Shown in pieces: positions 23,184 through 53,587 of a stretch of DNA of 55,005 bases (its first letter is position 1; the number at the start of each line of letters is the position of its first letter). The position numbers and the translations under genes were made by a program. A model generated the notes under the pieces. That model was not told the origin of the DNA and made no database searches. It saw only the letters and a program-made list of their open reading frames with translations. The DNA is from Thermoanaerobaculia bacterium (lineage in GTDB: Bacteria > Acidobacteriota > Thermoanaerobaculia > Multivoradales > UBA5704). Location: the NCBI GenBank assembly GCA_036397955.1, contig DASWHY010000275.1:1-55005 (forward strand), given 5' to 3'.

Positions 23184-26100
23184 GGCCCGCCCTCCAGGCT
23201 GCCGGCGAGGTCGCCCGCGAGATCGTCGAGCTCCGCTTGGTCGAAATCCATCAGAGGGAAATCCGACGGCGTGTAACCCCCCGCGCCTTCGGCGTGGCAA
23301 TGCGCCACGAGCTCGCGCAGGGCGTCGACGTAGGCGTCGGCCAGGCGCCCGACACGCTCGCGGCGCAGGGCGGCGGCGTAGGTGAAGGCGAGGCCGAGCC
23401 GGCCGTCGCGGACGCCACCGTTGACCTCCAGGAGGTGAGCCCGCGCCTGGCGCGGGCCGGCGAGGGCTCCCACGCCCTCGCCGGCGGGGCGGAAAATCGA
23501 GCCCTCGGGGAAGGCGCGATCGAGCCGGCCGAGGTAGTTGAAAACGATCTCAGGCCGCCGCGCGACGGGCGGGCCCTCCTCGCGCAGCTCCAACAGGCCC
23601 CAGGTCAGGCCCCGCTCGGGCAGGCGCCGCAGGCGCTCCTTCGTCGCCCGCAGGGTGCCCCCCACGCCGCCGGCGTCGACCTCGAGACGCAGGGGGAAGA
23701 GGGTCGTGAGCCAGCCGACGGTGCGCGAGAGGTCGACCGCCGTGGCGCCGTCGGCGGCGCCCTCTTCGCGGCCGTGGCCCTCGAGCTCGACCCAGAACGC
23801 CGTCTCGCCGGTGAAGCGGCCGAGGGCGAGGGCGAATGCGGCGAGGAGGGCGTCGTTGACCTCGGTGCCGTACGCCCGGGGCGCCTGCGTGAGGAGGGCC
23901 GCGGTGGTCTCGGCGTCGAGCTCGCGCCAGAGCGTCGCCGCGGTGGCGGCGAGAGGGGCGGCGTCCGCCTCGTCGAGGGGAAGCGGCCGCGGGGCGTCGC
24001 CCAGGCTCCGGCGCCAGAGCGCCGCCGCCTCGGCGGACTCCGGCGAGCGGGCGCGCGCGGCCAGAAGCTCGGCCCAGGCCTTGAAAGAGGTGGTCTTCGG
24101 CGGCAGGTCGAGGCGGCCCGAGCGCTCGAGCTGGAGATAGGAGAGCTCGAGGTCCTCCACGAGGATCCTCCACGAGACGCCGTCGACCGCGAGGTGGTGA
24201 ACGATCCACAACAGCCGGTCGTCCTCCGCCTCGCCGCCCGGGTAAAGGAGGAGGCGCGCGAGGGGCCCCTCTCCGAGGTCGAGCGACGCCTGGCACCGCC
24301 CGGCCGCCGCCGCCCGCGCCTCCGCGCGCCGCTCGGCCGGCAGGACCCGGAGGTCGACGACGGCGAAGGGCACGGCGCCGCCGGGCGGGACCGACCACTG
24401 GCGCCAGCCGTCCTCGTCGCGCGCGAAACGCAGCCGCAGGGCGTCGTGGTGCGCGAGCAGCGCCGCCAGGGCCTGCTCGAGGACGCCCGGGTCGAGCCGG
24501 CGGGTGACGGCGAGGGCCAGGGCCTGGTTGAAGTGGTGGGCGTCGGCCGGATCGGCGGCGAGGAAGCGGCGCTGGACCGGCAGGAGGGGCACCGCTCCCA
24601 CCACCGGGCCCTGCTCGGCGGCGGTGCCGCCGGCGGGCTCGGCCGCCGCCGCCACGGCGGCGACCGTCCGGCGCTCGAAGATCTGCTGCGGCGTCACCCG
24701 CAGGCCGCGGCGGAGCGCCCGCGTCACCACCCGGATGCTGAGGATCGAATCACCGCCGAGCCTGAAGAAGTCCTCGTCGATCCCGACCTCCCCGAGCCTC
24801 AGGACCTCGGCCCAGACCTCGGCCAGCACGGCCTCGGCGTGGGTCCGCGGCGCGGCCGCGCCGCGGCGCTCGGGGATCGGCAGGGCGCGGCGCGCCAGGT
24901 CACTACGGTCGACCTTGCCGCTCGCGTTGAGCGGCAGGGCGTCGAGGGCGGCGAACGCCGCCGGCACCATGTGGTCCGGCAGGCGGGCGACGAGGTGCGC
25001 CCGCAGCTCGTCGGCCGCCGGCGGCGGATCGCCTGCGGCGGCCCAGTACGCCACTAGGCGCGTGGTCTCGCCGTCCGCGTGGGCGATCACCGCCGTCTCG
25101 CGCACCCCGGGATGCTCGAGCAGGACGGCCTCGATCTCCCCGAGCTCGATGCGCAGCCCCCGCACCTTCACCTGGTGATCGATCCGTCCGAGGAACTCGA
25201 TCGCGCCGTCGCCGCGGCGCCGGGTGAGGTCCCCCGTGCGGTAGAGCCGGGCGCCGGGGTCCGCCCCCCAGGGATCGGGCACGAAACGCTCGGCGGTGAG
25301 CCCGGAACGGCCGAGATAGCCGCGCGCGACCTGCACGCCGCCGATCAGGAGCTCCGCAGGCACCCCGATCGGCGCGACGCGGAAGCGCCGGTCCACGAGG
25401 TAGACTGCCACGTTGGCCTCGGGCCGGCCGATGGGTACCGCCTCCCCGGGGGAGCAACGCCAGGCGGTGACGTCGATCGCCGCCTCGGTGGGACCGTAGA
25501 GGTTGACGAGGGGGGCGGCGAGGCGCCCGGAGAAGCGCCGGACGAGCTCGCGCGGCAGAGCCTCGCCGCTGGCGATCACGTGGCGCAGGGAAACGCATCG
25601 GGAGGCGGCGTCCTCCTCGACGAAGACCCGCAGCAGCGAGGGCACGAAGTGGACGACACTCACCCTTTCCTCGACGATCCGCCGTGCCAGGTAGTCGGGC
25701 TCGCGGTGGCCGCCGGGACGCGCGATCACCGAACGGGCGCCGACGGCGAGGGGCAGGAAGAGCTCCCAGATCGAGACGTCGAAGGAGTGGGGCGTCTTCT
25801 GCAGGAAGACGTCCCCCGCGCCGAGGGCGAAGGCATCGACCATGGCGCGCAGGCGGCTCACGATCGCGCGATGGCTCACCGCCACCCCTTTCGGCCGGCC
25901 GGTCGAGCCCGAGGTGTAGATCACGTAGGCGGCGTTGGCCGGCGCGGCCCGGCGCGGCGGGCGCTCCGGCGCCCGGCCCTCGGCATCGAGCCGCAGGACC
26001 GGGATCCCGACGTCCGCGAGGCGCTCGGCGAGACCGGCGCGGGCGAGGAGCACCGCGGCCCCGCTGTCCTCCAGCACCAGCTCGAGGCGGCGCCGCGGAT

Positions 26101-29100
26101 CCTCGGGGTCGACGGGCACGTAGACGCCGCCCGCCGCGTGGATCGCCATGAGCCCGGCCATCCGCTCCAGGGAACGCTCGGCGGCGAGCGCCACCCGCGT
26201 CTCGGGCTCCACGCCGAGGGCGGCGAGGCGGCGGGCGAGAAGCTCGGAGCGCCGGAGGAGCTCGCCGTAGGTCATCCGCGCGCCCTCGACGACGAGCGCC
26301 ACGGCCTCGGGTGCGGCTGCCGCCGTCGCGCGCACGAGCTCGTCGAGGGTCGCGTCCGCGCTGCGTCGGCGCTCGGTGTCGTTCCATTCGCGCAGGAGCT
26401 GGTGCCGCTCGGCCTCGCCGAGCCATGGCAGGGCGCCCACCTGGACGTCGGGGTCGGCGGCCAAAGCGCCGAGCAGGACCCGCCAGTGGCCGAGCAGACG
26501 CACCACGTCGGTGGCGGCGAAACGCCGGGCGTCGTAGGTGAGGGCGAGGGCGAGGCCGTCGCCGCCGGGGTTGGCGTTGACGAGCAGGGGATAGTTCGTC
26601 TCGAGCGCGGTCGCGACGTCGCGCAGCTCGAGGCGGACGCCGGGCGAGCCCTCGGGGGCGGGATAGTTCTCGAAGACCAGGACGCTCTCGAAGAGCGGCA
26701 GAGCGTCGCGGAGGCCGCTCTCCTTGCGAATCTCGGCCAGAGGGCACCATTCGTAGCGCCGCGCCTCGACCTGCGCCGCCTGGACCGTCTCGAGCCAGAC
26801 CGCCGCCGGGCGCGAGACCTCCACCCGGCAGCGCAGGGGCAAGGTGTTGGTGAAGACGCCGAGGACGGTCTCGACCCCCTCGATCTCCGGCGGCCGGCCG
26901 GCGACGCTCATGCCAAAGACGACGTCGTCGCCGCCGCCCGAGCGGGAGAGGACGAGGGCCCAGGTGCCCTGGACAGCGGTATTCAGGGTCAAGCCGCGGC
27001 GCCGCAGCGCCGCCGTGAGACGGGCGAGCGGCGCCGCGGGCAGGCGGATCTCCCGCACCGCCGACGCCCTGACCTCGGCCCCGGGCTCGCCGCGGTCGAA
27101 GCCGACCCGGTTGGGGGCCTCGAAACCCGCGAGGATCCGGCGCCAGGCGGCGCGGGCGGCGCCCTGGTCCCGGCGCGCGAGCCAGGCGATGAAGTCGCGG
27201 AAGGGGCGCGGCGTGGCGAGCCGGGGCGCGGCGCCGTCGAGACCGGCCTCGTAGGCGGCGAGGACCTCGCCGAGCAGAAGCGGCAGGGACCAGCCGTCCA
27301 GGATCAAGTGATGGTGGCTGAAAACGAAGACGTGCTCGCTCTCGCCGGTGCGGAAGAGCGACAGGCGCAGCAGGGGCCCGCGGTTGAAGGGCGCCACCCG
27401 CGCCGCTTCGCCGCGGAGATCCTCCGACAGCCGCCGCCGCCGCTCCGCGGCCGGCAGGTCGCGCCAGTCCTCCCGCCGGCAGGGCACCGCCACCCGCCGG
27501 CCCACGACCTGCACCGGTCGCTCCAGATCCTCCCAGACGAAGGCCGTGCGCAGGGCCGGATGCCGGTCCACCACTGCTTGCCAGGCAGCCTCGAAGACTT
27601 CCGGCCGCAGCTCCGGCACGGTCGCGGCGAAGGTGGTGACGTAAAGGTCCGACGTCTCGCCGTAGAGGCCGTGGAAGAGGAGCCCCTCCTGGAGCGGCGC
27701 CAGGGCGTAGACGTCCTCGATCTCCGCCGGAGCGCCGTCGCGGGTCTCGAAGCGCACGCCCTCCAGGGCTTTGCGGAGCTCTCCGGCCTCGAGCCGCGCC
27801 AGGGGAAAGTCCGAAGCCGTCCAGGCGGCGACGCGGCGGACCGCGGCCGCGGGCCGGGTGGCGTCGGCGAGCTCTTCCAGGGCGGCCTTGAAATCGGCCG
27901 CCAGGGCCTCTACCGTCCCGCGGCGGAGGAGGCGGGGGCTGTAGGCCCAGCCCATGCGCAGACGCCCGCCGCTCGTGCTGCCGAAGATGAAGACGAGGTG
28001 CCGGCGCTCGAGCTCCGGCGCGTTCCACGGGCCGGTGGGCTCAGGGGCGCCGCCGAAGAGCGCGTCGTCGCCGGCGGTCACCTGGTCGAGCTGGCCGAGG
28101 TAGTTGAAGCCCACCTCCGCCGCCGGCAGTCCGGCGAGCTCGGCGGCGACCTCGGGCCGCGGATCGAGATAGCGCAGCACGCCCCAGCCGATCCCCTTCG
28201 AGGGCACCGACCGCAACACCTCCTTGGTTGCCGCCAGGGCGCCGAGAGCGCCGCCGGAGGCCGGATCGAGGAGCAGGGGATAGACCGCGGTAAACCAGCC
28301 GACGGTGCGCGAGACGTCGAGCCCGGCGGCGGCGGTGACGACCTCCTCGCGGCCGTGCGCCTCGACGTCGACCAGGACCGGGCCGCCGGCGAAGCGGCCG
28401 AGGGCGCGGGCGGCGGCGGCGAGGAGGACCTCGTCGATCGTGGCCCGCAGCGTCGCCGGCGCCTCGTGGAGGAGCCGGCGGGTCGCCTCCTCGTCGAGCT
28501 CGACGCCGACGGTCTCGACCATGCCCTCGAGGTTCCTGCCCCGGGCGCGCTCGAAGTCCACCGGCAGGGGCACGGCGCGGCGGCGGGCCGCCGAGGCCCA
28601 GTACGCCCGCTCGGCGTCGAAACGGCCGCTCCAGGCGAGGGCGTCGAGGGTTTCGGCCCAGCGCTTGAAGCCGTCGGTGCGCGGCGGCAGAAGCGGCTCG
28701 ACGCCGGCTTCGAGGGAGCCGCAGGCCCGGCCCAGGTCCTCGATGAGGACGCGCCAGGAGAGACCGTCGACTACGAGGTGATGGAAGATCAGCAGGAGGC
28801 GTCCCTCGCCGCCGGTATCGAAATAGGCGACGCGAAAGAGGGGTCCGCGGACGAGGTCGAGGCTTTGCTGGAGGGCCGCGGCGGCGGCCTCGAGCACGCC
28901 GCGCCCGCGCTCCGGCGGCAAGCCGCTCAGGTCGAGGGCATGGCACGGCGGCGCCGTCTCGGGCGGGGCGTTCCATGCCCGCCAGCCGGTTGCCGCGCCG
29001 GCGGCGAAGCGTAGCCGTAAGGCGTCGTGGTGGCGCTCGAGGAGCGCCACGGCGCGGTAGAGGCGCCCCGGGGCGAGAGGCCGGCGCACGGCGAGCATCG

Positions 29101-32100
29101 CCGCCTGGTTCCAGTGCCCGGGCCGGGCGAAGCGATGCTCGAAGAACCAGGCCTGGATCGGCGTCAGGGGCAGCGGCCCCGAGACCGGCGCCTCGGGATC
29201 GGCCGACGCCGCTCCCGCCGCCACCGGGGCCACGGCCGCCGCCAGCTCGGCCACCGTGGGATGGAGGAAGACCTGGTCGAGCGAGCAATCGAGGCCTTCC
29301 TGGCGCGCCCGGGCGACGATCTGGATCGCCAGGATGGAGTCGCCGCCCAGGGCGAAGAAATTCGCCCCGCGGTCGACCGCCCCGACCTTGAGCACCTCGC
29401 GCCAGATCCGCGCCAGGAGCTCCTCGAGCTCGCCGCGAGGCCCTTCCTCGCGGCGCCGATCGGCCGACGCCGCGGCCTCCCCGCGCTCGGCCTCGGCAAG
29501 ACGCTCGAGGGCCTTGCGGTCGACCTTGCCGTTCGCGGTCAGGGGCATCGCCTCGAGGAGCAGCCAGCTCGCCGGCACCATGTAAGCCGGCACCTTGGCG
29601 CCCAGGTGCTCGGCGAGGGCCTCGCCGTCCACGGCGGCGCCGGGAGCCGGCACGGCGGCGGCCACGAGCCGCCGGCGGTGCCGATCCCCCACCGCCACCA
29701 CCGCCGCCGCGGCGACGCCGGGATGCTCGCCCAGAGCCGCCTCGATCTCGCCGAGCTCGACGCGATGACCCCGGATCTTGACCTGCTGGTCCTCGCGGCC
29801 GAGGAACTCGATCGTGCCGTCGCCGAGGTAACGCCCGAGGTCTCCGGTCTTGTAAAGGCGCTCGCCGTTCCGAGGATCGGGGACGAAGCTCGCGGCCGTG
29901 CGCGCCGGGTCGCGCCAATAACCCCTCGCCACCCCGACGCCGCCGATGAAGAGCTGGCCCGGTGCCCACTCGGGACGAGGCTCGAGGTCGCCGTCGAAGA
30001 CCTGGAAGCTCTGGCGGGTCATGGCCCGGCCGTAGGGAATCGACGGCCAGCTCGGGTCGACCTCGCCGATCTCGTAGGCGATCGACCAGATCGAAGCCTC
30101 CGTGGCTCCGCCGAGGCTGACGACGGAGAGGGCCGCCGCCGGCCGCGCAGAAACGGCGCGCAGGCGGTCCGGCAAGGCGACCGGGATCCAGTCGCCCGAG
30201 AGCATGACCAGGCGCACGCTCTCGGGCAGGACCGCGCCCATGGCCTCCAGGTGCTCGACCATCATCAGGAGGAGGGCCGGCACCGAGCTCCAGATCGTCA
30301 CGCCGTGGCGCGCGGCGAGCGCGAGCCACTCGTCGGGCCGCCGGGCCGCGCCGGGCTCCGGGATCACCACCGCGGCCCCCGCCGCGAGGACGCCGAAGAG
30401 GTCGTAGACCGAGAGGTCGAAGGAGAGGGAGGAGAGGGCGAGGACGCGGTCCTCGGGGCCGACGGCGAAACGCCGGTTGACGTCGAGGACCGTGTTGACC
30501 GCTCCGCGATGATCGATCATCACCCCCTTGGGGGCGCCGGTGGATCCGGAGGTGAAGATGACGTAGGCGAGGTCCTCCGGCGTGGCCGCGGGAGGCCCTT
30601 CCTCAGCTGGGGCCCCGGGGGGCTCCTCCGCCGAGACCGCGAGCCAGGCGACCGCGGAGCCGGCCGCGGCCGCCTCCAGCTCGGCGCGAAGCGACGGGAG
30701 AGTGAGGGCGGTCGCCACCTGGCCGCGCGCGAGGAGGTGAGCCACGCGCTCCGGCGGCAGGGCGGGATCGATCGGCAGATAGGCGGCGCCGGCCTCGAGG
30801 ACGCCGAGGACCGCGACCACCTGCTCCCACCCCTTCTCCATCACCACCGCCACCAGGGTGTCAGGCCGCGCGCCGCGGCGGCGAAGCTCCGCCGCGAGCC
30901 GGAGCGCGCGGGCACGGAGCTCGCCGTGGCTGAGCCGGCGCCCAGCCGCGTAAACCGCCGGCGCCTCCGGATCCCGGCGGGCGGCGGCGAAGACCCGCCG
31001 GTGGAGAAGCCCCGTGGGCGCCCCCTCCGCCGCCTCGGGCTCGCGGCGCCGGGCGAGCTGCGCCGCCGGCAGACGGAGGAGGAGGCCGGTCCAGGTCTCG
31101 GCCTCGGCGAGCCGCTCCAGGAGATCGCGGTAGGCGGCGAAGAGGTCGTCGAGCAGGCCGGAGGGGAAGAGCTCCTCGACCGCGTCCCAGTTGTAGACCA
31201 GCTCCCCCCGGCTCTCGCTCACCTGGTGATCGATCCACACCTGGGGCGTCTGGCTGATGCTGTAAACGTGCTCCGCCTCGGGCAAGGCGCCGCCCGCCTC
31301 GCCACCGCCCTCGGGAAGACCGAGAAGGCTGGTGAAAACCACCGGCACGGCCGGCCCGCGGCCCTCTCCGCCGGAGCGCTGGGCGAGCTCCCGCAAGACC
31401 CGCACCCCGCTCACGTAACGATGGTCGAGGTCGGCCAGGAGCCGCGCCTGCAGCGCCCGCGCCCGCTCCGCGAAGGATGTCGGGCGGCGGTGGTCGACCT
31501 CGAGCAGCGTCAGGGAAGTGAAATCCCCCACCAGGGCGTCGACCTGGGCATGGAAGGGCAAGCGGCGGAAGAGCGTCAGGGTGAGGAGGAAATGGGGCCT
31601 GGCGCTCCACCGCGCCAGGGTCTCGGCGAAAGCGCCGAGGAGGAGGACCGAAGGCGTGACGCCGGCGGTGGCGGCGCGCTCCTTGAGGCGTGTCCAACGC
31701 CCGGCGTCGAGGCGGGCGCCGCGGCGCGTGAAGCGCGGCAGCCCGAGGCTCGCGGGATCGCGCGCCAGGGGCAGCTCGGGGCCTCCGGGGAGCCCCGGCA
31801 GACGCGCGCGCCAGTACTCGAGGGAGCGCCGGTAGAGCGGCTCCTCCCGCAGCGCCTCCTCCGCCAGCACGTAATCGCGGAAGGAGACCCCGAGAGGCTC
31901 CAAGGAGGTCTCGGGATCGGCGTAGAGAAGCAGCCACTCGCGGCGGAGCACCTCGACGGTCCAGGCGTCGCCGACTAGGAAGTCGAAGCCGAGGTGGAGG
32001 CGGAGGCGGCCGCCCGGCAGACGCGAGGCGCGGACGTCGAAGAGCGGCCAGCGGTCCGCCGGCAAGATCTGATGGGACATCTCGTGCCGCCGCGCCGCGA

Positions 32101-35100
32101 GGGCCTCCTCGGCTTCCGCGGCGGCGGCCCGCGAGAGATCGAGGAGTGCGAAGCGGTAGGGCTCGACGCGCTCCAGGATCCGCTGGCGGCCGTCGGGATC
32201 GATCACCGCGCGTAGCATCTCGTGGCGCTCGACGAGGCGGACGAAGGCGTCGTTCAGACGCTCGAGATCGAGACCGCGGACGTCGATCTCGGTGTAGAAG
32301 TAGGTGGCGACGTTGCCGATCTCGAAGGAGCCGCCGCGGCCGATCCAATAGGCCTGCTGGACGTCGGTCAGCGGGAACGGCTCGTGGCGCCGGGCGGGAT
32401 CGGCGACGAGCTCGGGAAGGGCCGGGCGCGCGCCGCCGCCTGCGGCGAGGCGGGCGTCGATCGTCGCGGCGAGGCGGGCGACGGTCGCGTCGGCGAAGAG
32501 CTCGCGCACGGCGACCTCCACCCCGAGCTCCGCCTCGAGCCGCGCCGTCACTCGGGTCGCCAGGAGCGAATGCCCGCCGAGCTCGAGGAAGGGATCGTGC
32601 GCTCCCACCTCGGCGATGCCCAGGGCCTCGCCCCAGATCCGGGCGATCCGCCGCTCGGTGGCGCTCCGCGGCGCCTCGTAGGCGACGCCCAGGGCCGGGC
32701 GGTGGTGCCCCGCCGCGGGCGCCGGCGTCTCCTCCTCCGCGATCCGGCGCGCCGCGGGCGCCGCCGTGCCGGCGCCCGGCCGCTCGATCCAGAAACGCCG
32801 GCGCTCGAAAGGATAGGTCGGCAGCGCGACCCTCCGGCGCTTCTCGCCCGCGAAGAAGCGCCGCCACGAGGGCTCGATCCCCACCAGCCACAGCCGGCCC
32901 AGGGTGGCGAGCAGATGGGCGTGCTCGTCTCCGGCGACGCCGCGCGCCACGTCCGCCGGAGGCCGTCCGGCGGACAGCGCCACCGTGTCCCGGGGCTTCT
33001 CGGGATGGGCCTGGGCCAGGGTGGTCAGAGCCCGCCCCGGACCGAGCTCGAGGAGCACCCGCCGGCGGTCGGTGAAAAGCTCCGTCAGGCCGTCGCCGAA
33101 GCGCACGGGCTGGCGGAGCTGGCGCGCCCAGTAGCCCGGATCGGTGGCCTCGGCGGCGGTGATCCAGGTGCCGGTGACGTTCGACAGGAAGGCGAAGCGC
33201 GGGGCCGCGAGGCCGCGCCCGGCCACCGCGCGCTCGAAGGGGGCCACGGCCGGGCCCATGAGCGTCGAGTGGAAGGCATGGGAGGTGTGGAGGCGGCGGT
33301 GCTCCACGCCGCGCCCGGCGAACAGGACGGCACAGGCGTCGATCTCCTCGGCGGACCCGGCCAGGACCGTCATCCGCGGACCGTTCACCGCCGCGACGGA
33401 AACCCCGCGCGGCAGCTCCGGCAGGAGCTCGGCCGCCGGCGCCGCCACCGAGAGCATCGCCCCTGGAGGCTGCTCGCCCATGAGGCGTCCACGCTCCGCC
33501 ACCAGGGCGAGAGCGTCGTCGAGCTCGAAGACGCCGGCCATCGCCGCCGCCGCCAGCTCGCCGATCGAATGGCCCAGCATCGCTTCGGGCGCGAGCCCCC
33601 ACGACGTCAGCAACCGGGCGGCGGCCCACCCGTGGACGAAGAGCGCCGGCTGAGCGAGATCGGTACGGCGCAGGAGCGCCGCCGCCTCCTCGTCCGCCGG
33701 GTCGCCGCAGAGGAGCTCCCGCAGGTCGCGGCCGAGGGCCTCGCGGAGCTTTTCTGCCGCCTCGTCGACCTCGCGGCGAAAGACCGGCTCGGCGTCGTAG
33801 AGGTCACGGCTCATACCGGGATGCTGGCTGCCCTGACCGGGGAAGAGAAAAACCAGGGGGCGCTCGCTCGGCTCCTCGAAATGCTCGAGGAGGCGCTCGG
33901 GATCGCGCTCGGCGAGGATCCGGGCGGCGCCGGCCCGGCTGCCCGCCACGAGCGCCCGTCGGTGGGGGAAACGCCGCCGGCCAAGAGCCAGGGTATAGGC
34001 GGCGTCGGCGAGGGGGACGTCGCTGCCGCCGAGGTGAGCGGCGAGGGCGTCGGTGGCACGGTCGAGAGCCTCCGGACCGGCCGCCGCCAGCAGCAGGAGC
34101 TGGCGCGGACGCGCCGGCGCCGTCGGCGGCGGCGCCGGGGCCTGCTCGAGGATCACGTGGGCGTTGGTGCCGCCGATGCCGAAGGAGCTCACCCCGGCCC
34201 GGCGCGGAGCGCCGTTGCCGGCCCAGGGCTCGAGCGAGGTGGCCACCCGGAAGGGCGAGCTCTCGATCTCGAGGTGCGGATTGGGCGCCTCGAAGTGCAA
34301 GCTCGGCGGAATCTCGCCGTGCTCGAGAGCGAGGACCGTCTTGATCAACCCCGCCATGCCGGCGGCGGTGTCGAGATGGCCGACGTTGGTCTTGACCGAG
34401 CCGAGAGCGCAGGCCCCCGGCCGCGGCGCGCCCCCCTGGGCGGCGTCGCGGAACGCGCGGCTCAAGGCCGCGACCTCGATCGGATCGCCCAGGGGCGTGG
34501 CCGTGCCGTGAGCCTCGACGTAGCCGATCGTCCGCGGGTCGACCCGGGCGGCGGCCAGGGCGGCGCGGATCACCCGCTCCTGGCCCTCGAGCCGCGGCGC
34601 GGTGAAGCCCACCTTGCCGGCGCCGTCGTTGTTGATCGCCGTGCCGAGGATGACCGCCCGCACGGCGTCGCCGTCCGCCAGGGCGTCCTCCAAGCGCTTG
34701 AGCACCACGGCGCCGACGCCGCTGCCGAAGATCGTCCCTCCTGCCCCGGCGTCGAAGGCGCGGCAATGCCCGTCGGGGGAGAGGATGCCGTCCTTCTGAT
34801 AGCGATAGCCCGGCACCGGCGAGAGATCGAGGGCGACGGCGCCTGCCAGGGCGAGGTCGCAGTCGCCGTCGATCAACCCCTGGCAGGCCAGGTGGAGGGC
34901 CACGAGGGAGGTCGAGCACGCCGTCTGGACGCCCACCGCCGGGCCCTCGAGATCGAGCTTGTAGGAGGTCTTGGTGGCGAGGTAGTCCTTGTCGTTGCCG
35001 AGGACCACTCCCAGGCCGCCCGCGGCGGCGGCGACGTCAGGCCGCGACGCCAGGTGATAGAGGAGGTAATGGCTGAGGCTGGCGCCGGCGTAGACCCCCA

Positions 35101-35455
35101 CCGCGCCGCCCTTCTCGCCGCCGTAGCCGGCGTTGTCGAGGGCCGCGAAGGCGCACTCGAGGAAGAGGCGCTGCTGCGGATCCATGATCTCCGCCTCGCG
35201 CGGGTTGACGCCGAAGACCTCGGCGTCGAAACAGTCGACGTCGGCGAGCTCCGGCTTGGCGGGCACCCAGGCGGGATCGGCGAGCAGCGCCTCGCCGGCT
35301 CCGAGCGCGCGCAGCTCCGCGGGGGAGAAGAGCCGCACCGACTCGACCGCCGCGCTCAGGTTGCGCCAGAAGGCGTCGAGGTCGCGGGCGCCGGGGAAGC
35401 GCCCCGCGAGACCGATGACGGCGACCTCCAGCCCGCTTGGCGTGCGCGCGCTCAT
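23180..35455 (-). CDS. hybrid PKS-NRPS, modules 5-7: KS-AT-T-Cy-A(Cys)-T-E-C(DCL-type)-A-T-E, 4091 aa
   Basis: ATG 35455 overlaps the upstream stop (ATGA).
- KS: TACSTSLVALHLAC (~34901-34930), EAHGTATPLGDPIE, TNVGHLD.
- AT: FPGQGSQ (~33812-33858), GHSIGE (~33558-33575), HAFHS.
- Carrier: FLELGGHSLLATRV (~32553-32600).
- Cy: FPLTDVQQAYWIGR (~32345-32383), DFLVGD (~31961-31990).
- A: FDLSVYD, SLGGATEASIWS.
- T: GGDSILAIQ (~29300-29370).
- E: HHLVVDGLSWRVLIEDL (~28741-28790).
- C: IEDVYALAPLQEGLLFH (~27661-27725), SHHHLILDGW.
- A: FDVSIWE, NLYGPTEAAIDVT.
- T: GGDSILSIRV (~24730-24780).
- E: HHLAVDGVSWRILVEDL (~24150-24205). Confidence 0.95.
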   Translation of the reverse strand: MSARTPSGLEVAVIGLAGRFPGARDLDAFWRNLSAAVESVRLFSPAELRALGAGEALLADPAWVPAKPELADVDCFDAEVFGVNPREAEIMDPQQRLFLECAFAALDNAGYGGEKGGAVGVYAGASLSHYLLYHLASRPDVAAAAGGLGVVLGNDKDYLATKTSYKLDLEGPAVGVQTACSTSLVALHLACQGLIDGDCDLALAGAVALDLSPVPGYRYQKDGILSPDGHCRAFDAGAGGTIFGSGVGAVVLKRLEDALADGDAVRAVILGTAINNDGAGKVGFTAPRLEGQERVIRAALAAARVDPRTIGYVEAHGTATPLGDPIEVAALSRAFRDAAQGGAPRPGACALGSVKTNVGHLDTAAGMAGLIKTVLALEHGEIPPSLHFEAPNPHLEIESSPFRVATSLEPWAGNGAPRRAGVSSFGIGGTNAHVILEQAPAPPPTAPARPRQLLLLAAAGPEALDRATDALAAHLGGSDVPLADAAYTLALGRRRFPHRRALVAGSRAGAARILAERDPERLLEHFEEPSERPLVFLFPGQGSQHPGMSRDLYDAEPVFRREVDEAAEKLREALGRDLRELLCGDPADEEAAALLRRTDLAQPALFVHGWAAARLLTSWGLAPEAMLGHSIGELAAAAMAGVFELDDALALVAERGRLMGEQPPGAMLSVAAPAAELLPELPRGVSVAAVNGPRMTVLAGSAEEIDACAVLFAGRGVEHRRLHTSHAFHSTLMGPAVAPFERAVAGRGLAAPRFAFLSNVTGTWITAAEATDPGYWARQLRQPVRFGDGLTELFTDRRRVLLELGPGRALTTLAQAHPEKPRDTVALSAGRPPADVARGVAGDEHAHLLATLGRLWLVGIEPSWRRFFAGEKRRRVALPTYPFERRRFWIERPGAGTAAPAARRIAEEETPAPAAGHHRPALGVAYEAPRSATERRIARIWGEALGIAEVGAHDPFLELGGHSLLATRVTARLEAELGVEVAVRELFADATVARLAATIDARLAAGGGARPALPELVADPARRHEPFPLTDVQQAYWIGRGGSFEIGNVATYFYTEIDVRGLDLERLNDAFVRLVERHEMLRAVIDPDGRQRILERVEPYRFALLDLSRAAAAEAEEALAARRHEMSHQILPADRWPLFDVRASRLPGGRLRLHLGFDFLVGDAWTVEVLRREWLLLYADPETSLEPLGVSFRDYVLAEEALREEPLYRRSLEYWRARLPGLPGGPELPLARDPASLGLPRFTRRGARLDAGRWTRLKERAATAGVTPSVLLLGAFAETLARWSARPHFLLTLTLFRRLPFHAQVDALVGDFTSLTLLEVDHRRPTSFAERARALQARLLADLDHRYVSGVRVLRELAQRSGGEGRGPAVPVVFTSLLGLPEGGGEAGGALPEAEHVYSISQTPQVWIDHQVSESRGELVYNWDAVEELFPSGLLDDLFAAYRDLLERLAEAETWTGLLLRLPAAQLARRREPEAAEGAPTGLLHRRVFAAARRDPEAPAVYAAGRRLSHGELRARALRLAAELRRRGARPDTLVAVVMEKGWEQVVAVLGVLEAGAAYLPIDPALPPERVAHLLARGQVATALTLPSLRAELEAAAAGSAVAWLAVSAEEPPGAPAEEGPPAATPEDLAYVIFTSGSTGAPKGVMIDHRGAVNTVLDVNRRFAVGPEDRVLALSSLSFDLSVYDLFGVLAAGAAVVIPEPGAARRPDEWLALAARHGVTIWSSVPALLLMMVEHLEAMGAVLPESVRLVMLSGDWIPVALPDRLRAVSARPAAALSVVSLGGATEASIWSIAYEIGEVDPSWPSIPYGRAMTRQSFQVFDGDLEPRPEWAPGQLFIGGVGVARGYWRDPARTAASFVPDPRNGERLYKTGDLGRYLGDGTIEFLGREDQQVKIRGHRVELGEIEAALGEHPGVAAAAVVAVGDRHRRRLVAAAVPAPGAAVDGEALAEHLGAKVPAYMVPASWLLLEAMPLTANGKVDRKALERLAEAERGEAAASADRRREEGPRGELEELLARIWREVLKVGAVDRGANFFALGGDSILAIQIVARARQEGLDCSLDQVFLHPTVAELAAAVAPVAAGAASADPEAPVSGPLPLTPIQAWFFEHRFARPGHWNQAAMLAVRRPLAPGRLYRAVALLERHHDALRLRFAAGAATGWRAWNAPPETAPPCHALDLSGLPPERGRGVLEAAAAALQQSLDLVRGPLFRVAYFDTGGEGRLLLIFHHLVVDGLSWRVLIEDLGRACGSLEAGVEPLLPPRTDGFKRWAETLDALAWSGRFDAERAYWASAARRRAVPLPVDFERARGRNLEGMVETVGVELDEEATRRLLHEAPATLRATIDEVLLAAAARALGRFAGGPVLVDVEAHGREEVVTAAAGLDVSRTVGWFTAVYPLLLDPASGGALGALAATKEVLRSVPSKGIGWGVLRYLDPRPEVAAELAGLPAAEVGFNYLGQLDQVTAGDDALFGGAPEPTGPWNAPELERRHLVFIFGSTSGGRLRMGWAYSPRLLRRGTVEALAADFKAALEELADATRPAAAVRRVAAWTASDFPLARLEAGELRKALEGVRFETRDGAPAEIEDVYALAPLQEGLLFHGLYGETSDLYVTTFAATVPELRPEVFEAAWQAVVDRHPALRTAFVWEDLERPVQVVGRRVAVPCRREDWRDLPAAERRRRLSEDLRGEAARVAPFNRGPLLRLSLFRTGESEHVFVFSHHHLILDGWSLPLLLGEVLAAYEAGLDGAAPRLATPRPFRDFIAWLARRDQGAARAAWRRILAGFEAPNRVGFDRGEPGAEVRASAVREIRLPAAPLARLTAALRRRGLTLNTAVQGTWALVLSRSGGGDDVVFGMSVAGRPPEIEGVETVLGVFTNTLPLRCRVEVSRPAAVWLETVQAAQVEARRYEWCPLAEIRKESGLRDALPLFESVLVFENYPAPEGSPGVRLELRDVATALETNYPLLVNANPGGDGLALALTYDARRFAATDVVRLLGHWRVLLGALAADPDVQVGALPWLGEAERHQLLREWNDTERRRSADATLDELVRATAAAAPEAVALVVEGARMTYGELLRRSELLARRLAALGVEPETRVALAAERSLERMAGLMAIHAAGGVYVPVDPEDPRRRLELVLEDSGAAVLLARAGLAERLADVGIPVLRLDAEGRAPERPPRRAAPANAAYVIYTSGSTGRPKGVAVSHRAIVSRLRAMVDAFALGAGDVFLQKTPHSFDVSIWELFLPLAVGARSVIARPGGHREPDYLARRIVEERVSVVHFVPSLLRVFVEEDAASRCVSLRHVIASGEALPRELVRRFSGRLAAPLVNLYGPTEAAIDVTAWRCSPGEAVPIGRPEANVAVYLVDRRFRVAPIGVPAELLIGGVQVARGYLGRSGLTAERFVPDPWGADPGARLYRTGDLTRRRGDGAIEFLGRIDHQVKVRGLRIELGEIEAVLLEHPGVRETAVIAHADGETTRLVAYWAAAGDPPPAADELRAHLVARLPDHMVPAAFAALDALPLNASGKVDRSDLARRALPIPERRGAAAPRTHAEAVLAEVWAEVLRLGEVGIDEDFFRLGGDSILSIRVVTRALRRGLRVTPQQIFERRTVAAVAAAAEPAGGTAAEQGPVVGAVPLLPVQRRFLAADPADAHHFNQALALAVTRRLDPGVLEQALAALLAHHDALRLRFARDEDGWRQWSVPPGGAVPFAVVDLRVLPAERRAEARAAAAGRCQASLDLGEGPLARLLLYPGGEAEDDRLLWIVHHLAVDGVSWRILVEDLELSYLQLERSGRLDLPPKTTSFKAWAELLAARARSPESAEAAALWRRSLGDAPRPLPLDEADAAPLAATAATLWRELDAETTAALLTQAPRAYGTEVNDALLAAFALALGRFTGETAFWVELEGHGREEGAADGATAVDLSRTVGWLTTLFPLRLEVDAGGVGGTLRATKERLRRLPERGLTWGLLELREEGPPVARRPEIVFNYLGRLDRAFPEGSIFRPAGEGVGALAGPRQARAHLLEVNGGVRDGRLGLAFTYAAALRRERVGRLADAYVDALRELVAHCHAEGAGGYTPSDFPLMDFDQAELDDLAGDLAGSLEGGP
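27790..29190 (-). other. epimerisation (E) domain following the Cy-A(Cys)-T module 6
   Basis: The preceding T has GGDSILAIQ (the E-partner type). E motifs: LPLTPIQAWFFEH, HHLVVDGLSWRVLIEDL (~28741-28790). It is followed by the DCL-type C (IEDVYALAPLQEGLLFH). Confidence 0.8.
31080..32390 (-). other. heterocyclisation (Cy) domain, module 6, directly after the KS-AT-T module
   Basis: Motifs: FPLTDVQQAYWIGRGG (~32345-32383) and DFLVGD (~31961-31990). Confidence 0.85.
33000..33860 (-). other. AT domain, module 5 (canonical GQGSQ, GHSIG, HAFHS: malonyl-type)
   Basis: Motifs: FLFPGQGSQHPGM, GHSIGELAAAAMAG, HTSHAFHS. Confidence 0.8.
34140..35430 (-). other. KS domain, module 5
   Basis: The domain runs from VAVIGLAGRFPGARDLDAFWRNL to GGTNAHVILEQAP (~34141-34190). 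TACSTS is at ~34901-34930. Confidence 0.85.
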
Positions 35456-38400
35456 GCCTCGCCCTCGCCGCCGCGCAGGCGCCGGAGCTCGCGGCGGCGC
35501 GCCCCGCGGCGATCCAGGCTCTCGCCGCCCTGCCCGTCTTCCGAAGGCCCGGGCGCCGGGACCGCGGCCGCGGGCGCCGGCGGGCCGAGCTCGCCGAGCA
35601 GTGCTCCCAGGGAGCGCACCGTCGGGTGATTGAACATCTCCACCAGGGGTATTTCGGCGCCGGCCAGGTCGCGCAGGCGGGCGTGGGCCTGAACCAGGTG
35701 GACCGAGGTGCCGCCGAGCTCGAAGAAGTTGTCGTCGACGCCGATCCGCTCGCGGCCGAGGAGATCGCGGACGATGCCGGCGATCTCCTCCTCGAGCCGC
35801 GAGCGCGGCGGCCCGCCGGGCCGCGGCTCCGCCGGCTCGGCCGACGGCGCGCGCCGCGCGAGAGCGGCACGGTCGACCTTCCCGTTGGCGGTGAGCGGGA
35901 GATCGTCGATCCGCACGAAGGCGCTCGGCACCATGTAGGCCGGCAGCTTGGCGCGCAGGAAGGCGCCGAGCTCGGCCGCGAGGCCGGTGCCGGCGGCGGC
36001 GCGCTCTTCACCCTCGCCGCCGTCCCACGGCCCGCCGACCAGGCTGTGGACCAGCCGGTCGTTGTCGGCGAGGCGGAAGGCCGGCCGCAGCGGCGGGAAA
36101 TCGATCTCGCCGATCTGGCACAGGCCGAGGCCCAGGCCGGGAGCCGTCATCTCCAGGAGCTGGGTGATCAGTCCGGCCTCGAGCGCGGAGAAGTGCCGGC
36201 CGAGCTCCTCGCCGTAGACCGGGGAGACGGCGTCGAGGCGGGCGACGAGGTAGAGGCGGAAGGCGACGTGGGTGAAGCCGGGAGGGTCCCGAGGCCGCGC
36301 CGGCAGCTCGGCGTCGGGAGTCAAGAGCACCAGGCGGTGCGCCGCCGGATCGTGGTAATAGGCGCCGGCCTCGAGCCCCTCGACCCGCCCCGCCGGGACG
36401 TGGAGATAGACCTGCACCGGATAGAGGGAGCCCGCCGAGGCGTAGCGATAGCGCGGCAGGGGCTCGTCGGGCGAGCGCACCTGGCTGAGGGCGCCGAGGA
36501 GCTCGCCCACGATTTCGAGGGGCACCGTCCGCGGCGCGAACCGGCGCCGGCTGCGCCGCTCCTCGGCACCGCCAGGGCCCACCCTTTCCGGCCAGGCGCC
36601 GCCCGGCAGGGCGACGGCACCGCGGCCATCGTCCCTGCGTCGTCCCGGCTCGCTCAGCTTGTGCTCGAGGAGCTGCAAGCCCTCGACCTCGCCCGCCGGC
36701 GTCTCCTCGACCACGTAGGCCACCAGGCGCCGCTCTCCGCGGGGCCGTCCCACGGCCGCCGCCACCGCCGAGCGCACGCGCGGATGCGTTTCGAGAGCGG
36801 CCTCGATCTCCCCCAGCTCGATGCGATGGCCGAGGACCTTGACCTGGTTGTCCTCCCGGCCGAGAAACTCGATCTCGCCGGTGGGCAGCATGCGGCCCAG
36901 ATCCCCGGTGCGGTAGAGGCGCTCGCCGGTCCGCGGATGGCGGAGGAAGGACGCGGCGGTGCGCTCCTCGTCGCGCCAGTAGCCCCGGGCGACGCCGACG
37001 CCTCCGATGTAGAGCTCCCCCGGCACCCCGACCGGCCGCCTCTCGAGCCCGGCGTCGAGCACGTGGAAGGTCTGGTTCAGCATCGGCCGGCCGTAGGGAA
37101 TCGACGCCCAGCTCGGATCGACCTCGTCGATCGGATGGAGGATCGACCAGATCGACGCCTCGGTGGCGCCCCCGAGGCTCACGACCCGGGCGTTCGGCGC
37201 CAGGCGGCGGACGCGCCCGGGGAGGTCGAGGGGAATCCAGTCGCCGGAGAGGAGCACGAGGCGCAGGCTCTCCGGCAGGCGCTCGCCACGGCCTTCGAGA
37301 TAAACGACCAACATCTCGAGGAGGGCGGGCACCGAGCTCCAAAGAGTGACGCCCTCGCGCACCATCAGCTCCCACCAATGGGACGGATCGCGCAGGGCCC
37401 AGGGCTCGGGCACCACCACCGTCCCCCCCGCGGCGAGGACGCCGAAGATGTCGTAGACAGAGAGGTCGAAATTGAGCGCCGAAAGCGCCAGGACCTTGTC
37501 CTCGGGATCGACGTCGAAGCGCCGGTTGACGTCGACGACCGTGTTCAAGGCGCCGCGGTGGTCGATCATCACCCCCTTGGGCAGGCCGGTCGAGCCCGAG
37601 GTGAAGATCACGTAGGCCAGGTCCTGAGGGCTCGCCGCATCGCCGTCCGCCGCCGGGTCGCTTTCCGCGATCTCCTCGATCGCCAGGGGCGCGACGCCGT
37701 CGATCCACGGCAGCTCGCCGACGAGGCGGCTCTCGGTGAGGGCCAGGCGGACCTCGCCGTGGCGCAGGAGGTGCGCGAAGCGCTCCGCGGGCAGGCCCGG
37801 ATCGACCGGCAGGTAGGCGCCGCCGGAGCGCAGGACGCCCAGGACCGCTGCCACCTGCTGCCAGCCCTTCTCCGCCGCCACCGCCACCAGGGAGTCGGGC
37901 CGCACCCGCAGCTCCCGCAGGCGGCGCTCGACGCCTGCCGCGAGCCGGTCGAGCTCGGCGTAAGAGATCGAGCGGCCCGCGGCCACCACGGCGGGACGGC
38001 TCCCCGCCTCCCGCGCCCGCTCGGCCACGGGCGCGTGGAGAAGTCCCTCGGGCACCAGGGCCGCGGTGGCGTTCGCCGCGGCGAAAAGCTCGGCTTGGGC
38101 GGAGGGCAGGAGCGCCTCGCGGGAGGTCGTCTCCCAGGCCTCGGCTCCGGCGGCGAGGCGCCGCAGGAGCCCTTCGTAGACCTCGAACATCCCCGCGAGG
38201 AAGCCCGGCTCGAAGAGCTCGCGCACGCCGTCCCAGTTGTAGCGAAGGGCGCCGCCGCGCACCGTCACCTGGTGGTCGAGCCAGACCTGGGGGGTCTGCC
38301 CGATCGAATAGACCAGGTCGAGCGCCGGCCCTTCTCGGGCCGTCCCTTCGGCGCTCGCGGCCCGTGTCTCGTCGAGGTTGACGGTGCTGGTGAAGACCAC

Positions 38401-41400
38401 CGGCATCGCCGCCCCTCGGCCGCCGCGCCGCGCTCCGAGCTCGCGCATCACCCGCACGCCGCCGACGACGCGATGGTCGAGGTCGGTCCACAGACGTTCC
38501 TGGAGACGCCGGGCGCGGACGGTGAAGGGCTCGGGCCGGGAGGCGTCGACGGCGAGCAGGGTCAGGGAGGTGAAGTCGCCGAGAATGCGGTCGACGTGGG
38601 GATGGAAGGGCAGGCGATTGAACAGGGTCAGGTTGATGGTGAAGCGCGGCGACTTGCTGAAGCGCGCCAGGACCTCGGCGTAGGCGGCGAGGAGCACCGC
38701 CGAGCCGGTGAGGCCCGCGGCCCGGGCACCTCGCTCGAGGCGAGACCAGTCGGCAGCCTCGAGACGGCCCGAGAAGCGCTCGAACCGCTGCTCGGCGAGG
38801 GCCTCGGGACGCCGCGCCAGAGGCAGCTCCGGCGCCGGCGGCAGCTCGTCGAGCCGGGCGCGCCAGTACTCGAGGGAGCGCTCGTAGAGCTCGCTCCTCC
38901 GCAGCTCCTCCTCGGTCAGGACGTAGTCGCGGAAGGTGACGTCGATCGGCGGCAAAGGCGCATCGGGATCGGCGTAGAGCCGGGCCAGCTCGGACGCCAG
39001 GAGGCCGAAGCTCCAGCCGTCGAAGAGGAGCACGTCGAGGCTCGTGTGAAAGCGCGTGCGTCCCGTGGGCAGACGCGAGGCCCGCAGCTCGAAAAGGGGC
39101 CAGCGGTCCGCCGGCAGGACCTGATGGGACATGCGCTCGCGCACCTCGAGGAGGCGCGCCCCGGCCTCCTCGGGCGGCTGGCCGGCGAGATCGAGGACCT
39201 CGATCGTATAGGGCTCGACCTCGGCGAGCACCCGCTGGCGGCCGTCGTCCCCGACGATCGCCCGCAGCATGTCGTGGCGCTCGACGAGACGCCGCCAGGC
39301 GCGCTCCACCCGCCCGACGTCGAGCTCGCCTTCGACCTCGAGATAGACGTGGGCGGCGACGCGGCCGAGGGCCATGTCGGCGCGCCGACCCACCCAGTAG
39401 GCCTGCTGGATCTCGGTCAGGGGGAAGGGCTCGAACCGCTCCTCGGGGCACGGCACCAGGGCCGGCGTCGCGGCGGCGGTCCCCCTTTCGGCCCGCCGGG
39501 CTGCCGCCAGGTCGATCGCCGCGGCAAGGCCCGCGACGGTCGGGGCGTCGAAAAGAGCGCGCAGGCCAACGTCGCTGCGGAAAGCCTTGCGGGTCTTGGC
39601 GATCAACTGAGTGGCGAGGAGGGAATGGCCGCCGAGGTCGAAGAAATCGTCGTCGATGCCCACCCGCCCGACTCCCAGGACCGCGCTCCAGATCGCGGCG
39701 AGCCTCTCCTCGGTGGGCGTGCGCGGCGCCGCGTAGGCCGCGGCTGCCGCCTGGCGGCCGTCCTCCGGCGGCGGCAGGGCGGCGAGGTCGACCTTGCCGT
39801 GGGCGGTCAGGGGGACCTCGCCGAGGACGACGAAGGCGCCGGGCACCATGTGCTCCGGCAGCTCGCGGGCAGCGTGGCGGCGCAGCTCCGGGCCGAGGCG
39901 GCGCACGAAGGCGCCGCGCAGGGGACGGCTGGCGAGGTCCTCGAGGGCCGCCGCGGGCTCCGGCGGCTCGAGCAGCTCGCCGCGCCGCGGCGTTTCGGGT
40001 CTCCGAAAGACCGCCCGCAAGCGTCCTCCTTCCCCGCCGCCGGACCAGCCGACCTCCACCTCGTAGCCCTTCTCGCGGCCGAGCGCGAAGAGCTCCTCGG
40101 GATCGACCGGCTCCTCTCCGGCATCGGGGTCCTCGGTGAGGCGGGCATTGGCGAGATCGTCGGCGAGGACCAGCGGGCAGGCCACGTCGAGGGCGCGGCT
40201 GAGCGGGCCGAGCGCGGTGACGCGCTCCGGCACGGCGGCCCGAGGCTCTGCGCCGCCCGGGGCCGGAGCGCGGAGGACGGCGTCGTAGCGGAAGCGCACC
40301 ATCTCGTTGCCGGAGCGCCCCCGCTTGACGTGGGCCTCGGCACGGGCGAGCCGGGGCGAGCGGCGGGCCACGGCGGTGAAGAACGACGGCGCGAGGACGA
40401 GCTCCTCCTCGCGGGCGAGGCGCGCCAGGCACCGCTGGCGGAGCTGCGCCGTGGACAGGTCGGGCGCCGCGCCGTGGCGCACGACCGAGGCGTGAAAGCT
40501 CTCCTGGAGCGGCAGGCTGCGCACGTCGCCGACGAAGATCCCGCCGCCTGGGGCGAGCCGCTGCGCCGCCCCCTCGAGGACCCGCAGCAGATACTCGACG
40601 CCCGGGAAGTACTGCACGACCGAGTTGAGGACGACGGCGTCGAAGGGACCCTCGTCAAGGCCGTCGAAATCGTCCGCCGGGCGCCTCGCGAGCGAGACGT
40701 GGCCGAGCCCGCGGGAGGCGAGCTGCGGCTCGATCGTCGCCAGCGCCCGCGGCGAGAGATCGGTCGCGACGTAGCGCTCGCAATGCGGCGCCACGCGGTA
40801 GAGGAGGAGGCCGGTGCCGCAGCCGATCTCGAGGAGGCGACGCGGCGGCGTGCCGCCGGGCCCCAGGGCGAGGATCCGCCCGACCGTCGTCTCCACCCAT
40901 TCACGCATCTCCTCCGCCGGGATCGGCTTGCCGGTGTAGCTCGAATTCCACCCCGCGACGTGGAAGGCGGCGTCGCCTTCGGAGGGCGTCGCGCCGTAGG
41001 TCTCGTCGAAGACCTCCCGCCACGCCTCCACCCGCTCCCCCGGGGCGCTCGCGAGGCCCTCCCCGGCGTCGGCACGGGGGAGGACGTAGGCCGTCAGCAC
41101 CGCCTCCCCGCCGGGACCGGGGAGCGCCCGGACGAGAGCCCGGCGTACCGCCGGATGAGCTTCCAGGACCGATTCGATCTCTCCCGGCTCCACGCGGAAG
41201 CCGCGGATCTTGATCTGGTGATCGACCCGGCCGCGGAAGGCCAGGGAGCCGTCGGGAAGGCGCACGGCCCGGTCCCCCGCGCGGTAGAGGCGCGCTCCTG
41301 GCCGGCCGCTCCAAGGATCGGGGACGAAGCGCTCGGCGGTGAGCCCCGGCCGCCCGAGATAACCCTGGGCGACCCCCGCCCCGCCCACGAAGACCTCGCC

Positions 41401-53011: not shown

Positions 53012-53030
53012 CGTCTCCACCTCAATCTCA

Positions 53031-53036
53031 CGTGCG
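53031..53036 (-). promoter_or_regulatory. candidate -10 hexamer TAGAAT for the NRPS/PKS operon
   Basis: The minus strand reads ggtgTAGAATccggcgcacgtgagattgaggtggagacgATG. This is the best sigma70-like -10 in an otherwise GC-rich stretch, ~20 nt upstream of ATG 53011. The -35 is poor (TTCCCG at 17-nt spacing). If it is used, starts at 53062 or 53101 are excluded. Confidence 0.25.
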
Positions 53037-53152
53037 CCGGATTCTACACCGGCGGGCGCCATCCGGGAAGAGGCAGCTTTCAAGTGGGTGTAACGATGCA
53101 AAGCGACCTCCGCGTCGCGGCTGTACGAGGCTCGGCGCTTGCCACCGTCCGT

Positions 53153-53306: not shown

Positions 53307-53378
53307 GGGGTGCTGAAAACGAACCCCGTTTCCTGGACCGCGGCTCGGACTTGACCTTGCCACCCTTGCCGGGAGCCG

Positions 53379-53495: not shown

Positions 53496-53587
53496 CGCCG
53501 TCGCATCGAAGCGAGTCCGGCCGACGAGGTCGAAGCGCACCCGGATCGACATTGCGCACGCGCGAGGCGAAGCGAGCCGTCAGGCAC

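Follow-up and report, generated by a model that had tools for sequence, protein, structure and literature searches.

Two compact KS-AT-T modules without reductive domains, one feeding a heterocyclisation domain, in a hybrid assembly line of a Thermoanaerobaculia bacterium

We analysed a stretch of 55,005 nucleotides from a Thermoanaerobaculia bacterium (assembly GCA_036397955.1, contig DASWHY010000275.1), referred to here at its full length as the window, which takes in an entire contig (C275; ~75% GC) of a metagenome-assembled genome (MAG) of 4.08 Mb that comprises 720 contigs and is 82% complete. About 43 kb of this contig is occupied by a hybrid nonribosomal peptide synthetase (NRPS)-polyketide synthase (PKS) assembly line whose genes are co-directional on the minus strand, beginning with a stand-alone condensation (C) protein and continuing through P0002, P0003 and P0001 to two further NRPS genes (Table 1). 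Both P0002 and P0001 open with a PKS module consisting of a ketosynthase (KS), an acyltransferase (AT) and a thiolation or carrier domain (T), with no ketoreductase (KR) or other reductive domain, and in P0001 the carrier is fused directly to a heterocyclisation (Cy) domain. P0002 starts at M264 (nt 51632), and the identical 2596-aa product has been called in other assemblies. The closest relatives of P0001 that bear names are almost all MAG proteins labelled 'Thermoanaerobaculia bacterium', with 45-57% identity, so the source is most likely an uncultured bacterium of this class.

Table 1. Genes, modules and domains of the assembly line in the window (nt, position in the window; aa, residue of the translation)
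Feature	Position (nt)	Strand	Basis and diagnostic motifs
Stand-alone condensation protein	51635-53011 (start alternatively 53101)	-	458 aa in other assemblies' calls; directly upstream of first KS
P0002 gene, 2596 aa from M264: KS-AT-T-C-A-T-E	43842-51632	-	Pfam, translation, domain map
First PKS module, KS-AT-T	48531-51632	-	Pfam, motif reading
KS of first PKS module, aa 281-652	50466-51581	-	TACSTS nt 51066-51083, EGHGSAT 50655-50675, KSNIGH 50553-50570
AT of first PKS module, aa 801-~1145	48987-50021	-	GYSLGE nt 49665-49682, HAFH nt 49377-49388
Post-AT linker, Ala/Pro-rich linker and PCP-like carrier of first PKS module	48531-48986	-	YPFERRRCW nt 48918-48932 (YPFER aa 1164); Ser1257 in GGHSL nt 48648-48662
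C domain taking the acyl chain of first PKS module, from aa 1309	47142-48497	-	Pfam, domain map
P0003 gene: C-A(MT)-T-Cy-A(Ox)-T	35452-43845	-	Pfam, domain map
C-terminal Cy-A(Ox)-T module of P0003	35452-39474	-	Pfam Nitroreductase inside A domain; domain map
P0001 gene, 4091 aa: KS-AT-T-Cy-A-T-E-C-A-T-E	23180-35455	-	Open reading frame list, translation, Pfam, domain map
Second PKS module, KS-AT-T	32447-35455	-	Pfam, motif reading
KS of second PKS module, aa 10-389	34289-35428	-	Pfam, motifs
AT of second PKS module, aa 535-~860	32876-33853	-	Pfam Acyl_transf_1; GHSIGE nt 33557-33574, HAFH nt 33269-33280
Post-AT linker and short Ala/Pro-rich AT-to-T linker of second PKS module	32666-32875	-	YPFERRRFW nt 32801-32815 (YPFER at aa 881)
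PCP-like carrier of second PKS module	32447-32665	-	Ser963 in GGHSL nt 32564-32578
Cy domain fused directly to second PKS carrier, from aa 1011	31091-32425	-	FPLTDVQQAY nt 32348-32377
A-T-E of Cy module	27776-31000	-	A code DLYSMSLIWK (Cys-like); T GGDSI; E HHLVVDG
NRPS gene: C-A-T-C-A-T-E	15342-23300	-	Domain map
NRPS gene: C-A-T-TE	11425-~15345	-	Domain map

As judged by motif reading, the Cys-His-His triad of the KS and the GxSxG and HAFH motifs of the AT are intact in both PKS modules. In the second module, the KS triad is made up of the Cys of TACSTS (nt 34907-34924) and the His residues of EAHGTAT (34496-34516) and KTNVGH (34376-34393), and the Pfam family Acyl_transf_1 scores 162 bits for the AT of P0001 and 156 bits for that of P0002. 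Under the established AT specificity motifs HAFH denotes the malonyl-CoA type, and its occurrence together with GxSxG indicates that both ATs belong to this type. The top solved match to the second module, 8xju_A, aligns over the entire KS-AT-T (E 1.4e-230), and the KS also matches ClbK (E 3e-134). Entries 8xju and 8xjy were deposited just as 'Polyketide synthase' and were solved alongside the ClbC entries 8xbl and 8xjt; we tentatively take 8xju to be ClbI. The C domain that follows the first PKS module has the active-site motif HHIVSDD, not HHxxxDG.

This preservation bears on whether the modules act at all. One or both might be skipped or inactive in vivo, leaving plain peptide at the corresponding positions, and the PKS module of ClbK is indeed skippable in some routes to colibactin (10.1101/530204). 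However, neither module has lost a catalytic motif from its KS, AT or T, and the second module is conserved, with 57% identity and the same layout, in another species, which makes skipping or inactivity very unlikely in our view.

Neither module contains a recognisable reductive or methylating domain. Upstream of the first Condensation domain in P0001 and P0002, Pfam identified only ketoacyl-synt, Ketoacyl-synt_C, KAsynt_C_assoc, KS-AT linker families, Acyl_transf_1 and PP-binding, and no KR (PF08659), dehydratase (DH), enoylreductase (ER) or methyltransferase (MT) family was found in either PKS module. The spacing of the conserved motifs points the same way: the YPF motif lies 82 aa from the carrier Ser in P0001 and 93 aa in P0002, and we estimate that helix 1 of the carrier accounts for ~30 of these residues, leaving an Ala/Pro-rich linker of ~35-45 aa. 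As a KR needs ~400 aa or more and a DH ~280 aa, the distances leave insufficient room for either, and the AT-to-T linkers of both modules returned no Pfam family even at E<=10. An earlier reading of the nucleotide letters and the translated open reading frames (the sequence-only reading), whose coordinates proved right to within a few bases, had described both modules as bare KS-AT-T without KR, DH, ER or C-methyltransferase, a description that the Pfam results and the spacing bear out; the cryptic KR or DH remnants that it had named as contrary evidence did not appear in the linker scan.

Reductive activity could nevertheless be supplied from elsewhere, in which case the beta-ketones would be lost to a trans-acting KR, a post-assembly reductase or another tailoring enzyme encoded off the contig or in its flanks. 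Such a route has a precedent in pepstatin, whose beta-ketones arise on KR-less modules and are reduced after assembly by the unlinked F420H2-dependent enzyme PepI (PMC12081711). The incomplete MAG holds several stand-alone genes resembling short-chain dehydrogenases/reductases (SDRs), as well as KR-bearing PKSs on other contigs, and two flavoprotein genes (Pyr_redox_3/FMO-like and FAD_binding_3/KMO-PHBH-like; 2178-5146, minus strand) lie in the left flank of the window, 6-9 kb past the end of the cluster. On the other hand, the 55-kb contig has no PF08659 match and codes for neither an SDR/KR nor a luciferase-like F420 enzyme, and the flank flavoprotein genes sit in a separate operon with YceI and cytochrome c genes, with an oppositely oriented MacB gene between them and the cluster. 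The sequence-only reading had suggested a search of the genome for a trans-acting KR; its account is supported by the contig, which has no KR, but the stand-alone SDRs of the MAG could include one.

Related assembly lines speak to the same question. We defined the compact KS-AT-T-Cy layout as an AT-to-T gap of <150 aa followed directly by Cy, and classed longer AT-to-T inserts by size alone as reductive-sized. P0007, P0010 and L015 each combine, in one line, a compact KS-AT-T-Cy module with a module that has a long AT-to-T insert, and a KR match lies in or beside these lines. A KR search of five relatives' genomes gave many matches, only one of which was tied to a locus, and that by size: in G004, a KR lies in a frame of 1562 aa, which is also the length of the KS-AT-(long insert)-T frame beside the compact module in L015. 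The occurrence of compact and long-insert modules side by side suggests that the missing KR is programmed, module by module, and we consider loss of the beta-ketones through reduction or other tailoring unlikely.

The PKS modules of the window also end in carriers of a kind familiar from NRPSs. Both read F(F/L)ELGGHSLLAT, and searches against all PDB chains returned NRPS peptidyl carrier proteins (PCPs) first (PvdL, LgrA, TycC3, SrfA-C); the only PKS-derived carriers among the matches were those of colibactin ClbC (8xbl) and ClbK (8cjh), of 8xju/8xjy and of the fungal PKS-NRPS PsoA, and no classical modular-PKS acyl carrier protein (ACP) reached E<=0.001. Identity to the NRPS carriers of the same cluster is 43-49%; the LGVDSL ACP of a DH-KR-ACP-TE PKS encoded in the same genome (contig C288, L001) shares just 25-28%. 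Elsewhere in the genome (contig C645, L002), a KR-containing PKS module has a PCP-like carrier, FFDLGGNSL, so that, with the LGVDSL ACP, two kinds of PKS carrier coexist in one organism. The sequence-only reading had singled out the NRPS-style carriers, and while their character is upheld by the GGHSL motif, the structural matches and the identities, they are not a distinctive trait. Across 80 related loci and 120 related proteins, the carriers that follow KS-AT read GG(H/D/N/T/S)S almost without exception, in a sample located with a PCP-like query that under-represents classical ACPs, and the pattern holds with or without a long insert in cyanobacteria, Chloroflexi, Acidobacteriota, Firmicutes and Streptomyces. 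Within this sample GGxS carriers are the rule for the hybrid-type PKS clade, and are not special to bare modules.

The domain that takes the chain from the second PKS carrier is a canonical Cy, and the claim that this module feeds a heterocyclisation domain directly is supported by their fusion in P0001. The Cy carries the DxxxxD motif as DFLVGD (31961-31984), the Thr in VVFTS (31328-31342) and the Asp in QVWIDHQ (31223-31243), and its top PDB matches are the thiazoline-forming Cy domains of EpoB (E 1e-100) and then of Irp2/HMWP2 (E 8e-98). The code of the adjoining adenylation (A) domain, read by hand from FDLSVYD, WSSVPA, LSGDW and GGATEASIW, agrees with the Cys consensus code DLYNLSLIWK at 8/10 positions. 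Behind the carrier of this module lies a full-length epimerisation (E) domain (27776-29185, minus strand) with HHLVVDG intact, followed by a C domain with SHHHLILDG, and the orthologous locus L011 in another Thermoanaerobaculia MAG keeps the order Cy-A-T-E; the full E domain after Cy-A-T predicts a D-configured thiazoline. On the donor side, the C-terminal Cy-A(Ox)-T module of P0003 is predicted to form a thiazole and pass it to the second KS. The carrier of this donor module (35587-35808, minus strand) has an unusual GGTSV core, and pre-KS carriers in related proteins often read GGNS or GGTS. Taken together, the canonical Cy motifs, the EpoB match, the Cys code, the full E domain and the lack of an acyl-CoA dehydrogenase (ACAD) gene on the contig make a thiazoline formed on a thiazolyl-beta-ketoacyl donor the most likely outcome.

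We think it probable, then, that both modules are functional in PKS chain extension within an NRPS line, using malonyl-CoA-specific cis-ATs and carrying out no reduction, and that the second hands its beta-ketoacyl chain to a thiazoline-forming Cy domain. Each KS would be loaded with the peptidyl chain of the NRPS carrier before it and extend this chain by a C2 unit, the resulting beta-ketoacyl thioester staying on the PCP-like carrier. This carrier would then dock at the donor site of whichever condensation-family domain comes next. After the first module this is an ordinary C domain, which would make a beta-ketoamide. After the second, the Cy would condense Cys with a donor of the 3-oxo-3-(thiazol-4-yl)propanoyl type, predicted because the thiazole arises on the preceding Cy-A(Ox)-T module, and cyclodehydration would give a thiazoline for the E domain behind it to epimerise. 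Should the ketone survive and the presumed substrates be correct, an azole-CO-CH2-azoline unit would form part of the product, probably as an enol or vinylogous-amide tautomer; in keeping with the sequence-only reading, this would leave a beta-keto group and a thiazoline next to an active methylene, perhaps able to bind metal.

What we observe in the window is the domain order, the intact catalytic motifs, the lack of cis reductive domains, the PCP-like carriers, the canonical Cy motifs and a layout conserved in an orthologous cluster. Several considerations weigh against our interpretation: a MAG that is 82% complete in 720 contigs and contains stand-alone SDRs has room for a trans-acting KR; by analogy with pepstatin, the ketones may be reduced post-assembly by an unlinked enzyme type (PMC12081711); the two flavoprotein genes past the end of the cluster could encode tailoring enzymes; and, again by analogy, PKS-fed Cy domains have twice proved non-canonical, one building a pyridine (PMC8149447) and the other transferring sulfur (10.1101/2024.12.18.629141).

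The first of these unusual Cy reactions is known from CaeA2/ColA2 and KnmA2 (caerulomycin, collismycin and karnamicin), PKS-NRPS proteins in which a KR-less PKS module is joined to an atypical Cy-A-PCP-Ct, where Ct is a shortened, His-less C-like domain that recruits an ACAD-like flavoprotein (CaeB1/ColB1/KnmD) before the Cy builds the pyridine; for karnamicin, an EpoB-like module supplies a thiazole as the donor (PMC8149447, PMC9838390). If the window encoded a line of this type, a flavoprotein would dehydrogenate the carrier-bound Cys and the Cy would make a C-C bond, giving a thiazolyl-pyridine as in karnamicin. The core order is identical, with a thiazole module leading into a KR-less KS-AT-ACP-Cy-A-PCP (PMC8149447, PMC9838390), and the karnamicin thiazole matches the donor that we predict. 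The Cy of CaeA2 reportedly resembles ordinary Cy domains, so that sequence alone does not discriminate, and one of the flank flavoprotein genes (3719-5146) is of the PHBH/KMO type, a broad class that also includes the pyridine hydroxylases of karnamicin. Yet the domain behind the carrier in P0001 is a full-length E with HHLVVDG, succeeded by a C domain and more modules, not a one-third-shortened, His-less Ct, and no ACAD gene (PF00441) lies on the contig, all six matches in the incomplete MAG being on other contigs. Given the full E domain and the contig without an ACAD, we reject pyridine formation, which we hold to be highly improbable.

The second precedent is thiolactomycin TlnC, in which a Cy fused to the last PKS module transfers sulfur and has an Asn-Asp dyad in place of the usual Thr-Asp (10.1101/2024.12.18.629141). 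A Cy acting in this way would turn the beta-ketoacyl thioester into a thiocarboxylate, and Cys would not be incorporated. TlnC shares with P0001 the fusion of a PKS module to a Cy (10.1101/2024.12.18.629141), but its Cy ends the protein and acts together with a P450 and with an A-PCP that is a protein of its own, whereas the Cy in the window has the Thr-Asp dyad (VVFTS / WIDHQ), A-T-E in cis and four more modules downstream. Sulfur transfer is rejected here on the Thr/Asp dyad, and we give it almost no credence. These comparisons yield a short set of criteria for separating the three fates of a PKS-to-Cy transfer (thiazoline, pyridine and thiocarboxylate), namely a Thr/Asp or an Asn/Asp dyad, an E or C domain or a truncated Ct behind the carrier, and the presence of an ACAD flavoprotein, which could be applied to many orphan relatives. 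The thiazoline that we favour requires no new enzymology.

Among the closest characterised parallels to P0001 are the KS-AT-T proteins of the ClbI/ClbC type and, above all, ClbK. The latter is a PKS/NRPS 'dimodule' with a KR-less KS-AT*-ACP as its PKS part; it extends the product of ClbJ, and its NRPS module then forms a thiazole (10.1101/530204). Like the protein in the window, ClbK fuses a KR-less PKS module to Cy-A-...-T, is fed by a Cy-containing NRPS and has PCP-like carriers. Unlike it, ClbK has a vestigial AT* and receives an aminomalonyl unit in trans, whereas the ATs of the window are full length with the active-site Ser and HAFH, and genes for aminomalonyl-ACP formation were absent among the open reading frames scanned on the contig. 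The position of Ox also differs, falling in the Cys module of ClbK and in the preceding module of the window, where an E follows the Cy module. Yersiniabactin HMWP1 (KS-AT-MT-KR-ACP-Cy-MT-PCP-TE) similarly places a PKS module between two azoline-forming modules and passes the chain to a Cy; however, it reduces and gem-dimethylates the beta-carbon through its KR and C-MT, both of which the PKS module in the window lacks.

Compact KS-AT-T-Cy modules occur well beyond this contig. Among the best 120 matches of a word search, 7 were compact KS-AT-T-Cy modules and 30 further modules were KS-AT-T-C. Species-representative genomes have the compact layout at no fewer than 11 loci of Acidobacteriota/Thermoanaerobaculia, and it is also present in Anaerobacterium chartisolvens DSM 27016 and three Streptomyces. 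In an exhaustive HMMER search of 1.84 billion cluster representatives (50% identity), an AT-T-Cy query matched uninterrupted in at least 20 other clusters, all among the top 150. L011 is the ortholog of the P0003-P0001 pair (57% identity), with C-A(MT)-T-Cy-A(Ox)-T followed by KS-AT-T-Cy-A-T-E, and L055 and L015 likewise have Cy-A(Ox)-T ahead of a compact KS-AT-T-Cy. L011, L055 and the P0046/P0050 family, all of them uncharacterised Thermoanaerobaculia/Acidobacteriota hybrids, resemble the window in their compact modules, GGHS carriers and 52-57% identity over KS-AT-T-Cy. Downstream they diverge, as the P0046 family has Ox, a second Cy and a match to a thioesterase family, and L055 and L013 have C in place of the E of the window. 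By sequence comparison, the architecture is well precedented and widespread, and the window adds an ordinary instance of it.

Two groups of relatives deserve separate description. In the cultured Firmicute A. chartisolvens DSM 27016 (L015; NZ_QPJT01000005.1:112368-137202), the line runs ...Cy-A(Ox)..., then KS-AT-T-Cy-A(Ox)-T, then KS-AT-(long insert)-T and then Cy-A..., and this host should be tractable for learning what an azole-CO-CH2-azole cassette makes. The three Streptomyces (L017, L018 and L023) have orphan proteins of ~2570 aa with the order KS-AT-T-Cy-A-T-C, 50-51% identical to the module in the window; the flanks of the L023 protein encode NRPSs, a TauD dioxygenase and an MFS protein. 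We considered these three as homologues of CaeA2 and rejected the assignment, since their terminal C domains retain HHIVWDAWS and no ACAD is encoded in the flanks of L023, the single locus scanned.

The run of azole module, KR-less malonyl PKS module and Cy is seen in Thermoanaerobaculia, other Acidobacteriota, A. chartisolvens and related lines; for the three Streptomyces, only the compact KS-AT-T-Cy is established, not the donor Cy/Ox. We suggest, tentatively and with more doubt than confidence, that this cassette could mark an uncharacterised product family sharing a malonate-derived azolyl-CO-CH2-azol(in)e (enol/enaminone) unit. In colibactin, an aminomalonate-derived bridge joins two thiazoles; the unit proposed here, if real, would be akin to that bridge but not the same, and would serve as a chelating or electrophilic pharmacophore. 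For the orphan line of the window, we predict two beta-keto positions, of which one lies between a thiazole and a D-thiazoline, and we found no characterised NRPS-PKS product from Thermoanaerobaculia.

Finally, the assembly line extends past what the window contains. Two longer ENA contigs (125,688 and 54,170 bp), ERZ27256803:k141_3052092 among them, encode an upstream 5327-aa NRPS, ending ...C-A-T, which ~1.1 kb separates from the stand-alone C gene, and the complete line probably spans ~60 kb. Because of this upstream NRPS, the first KS probably receives its chain from a peptidyl carrier, and the numbers 2 and 6 that the sequence-only reading had assigned to the modules acting on the two beta-ketoacyl chains, on the assumption that the line starts on this contig, are too low. 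The window is 98% identical to both ENA contigs up to ~53,495 and divergent beyond, which reflects either a mis-join or strain variation, and the 5327-aa NRPS had no high-identity match in a search of the MAG. In this part of the window (~53,022-55,005), a secretin gene occupies the place where the other assemblies have this NRPS. In those assemblies, the 1.1-kb spacer (L091:8898-10000) repeats a ~43-bp unit (…GACCGCAGGGCCTGTACACGTCAGGGACGGATCAGTCCTTGAC…) about eight times in tandem at ~9300-9700, just ahead of an array of GTCTCAC/GTGAGAC heptamers.

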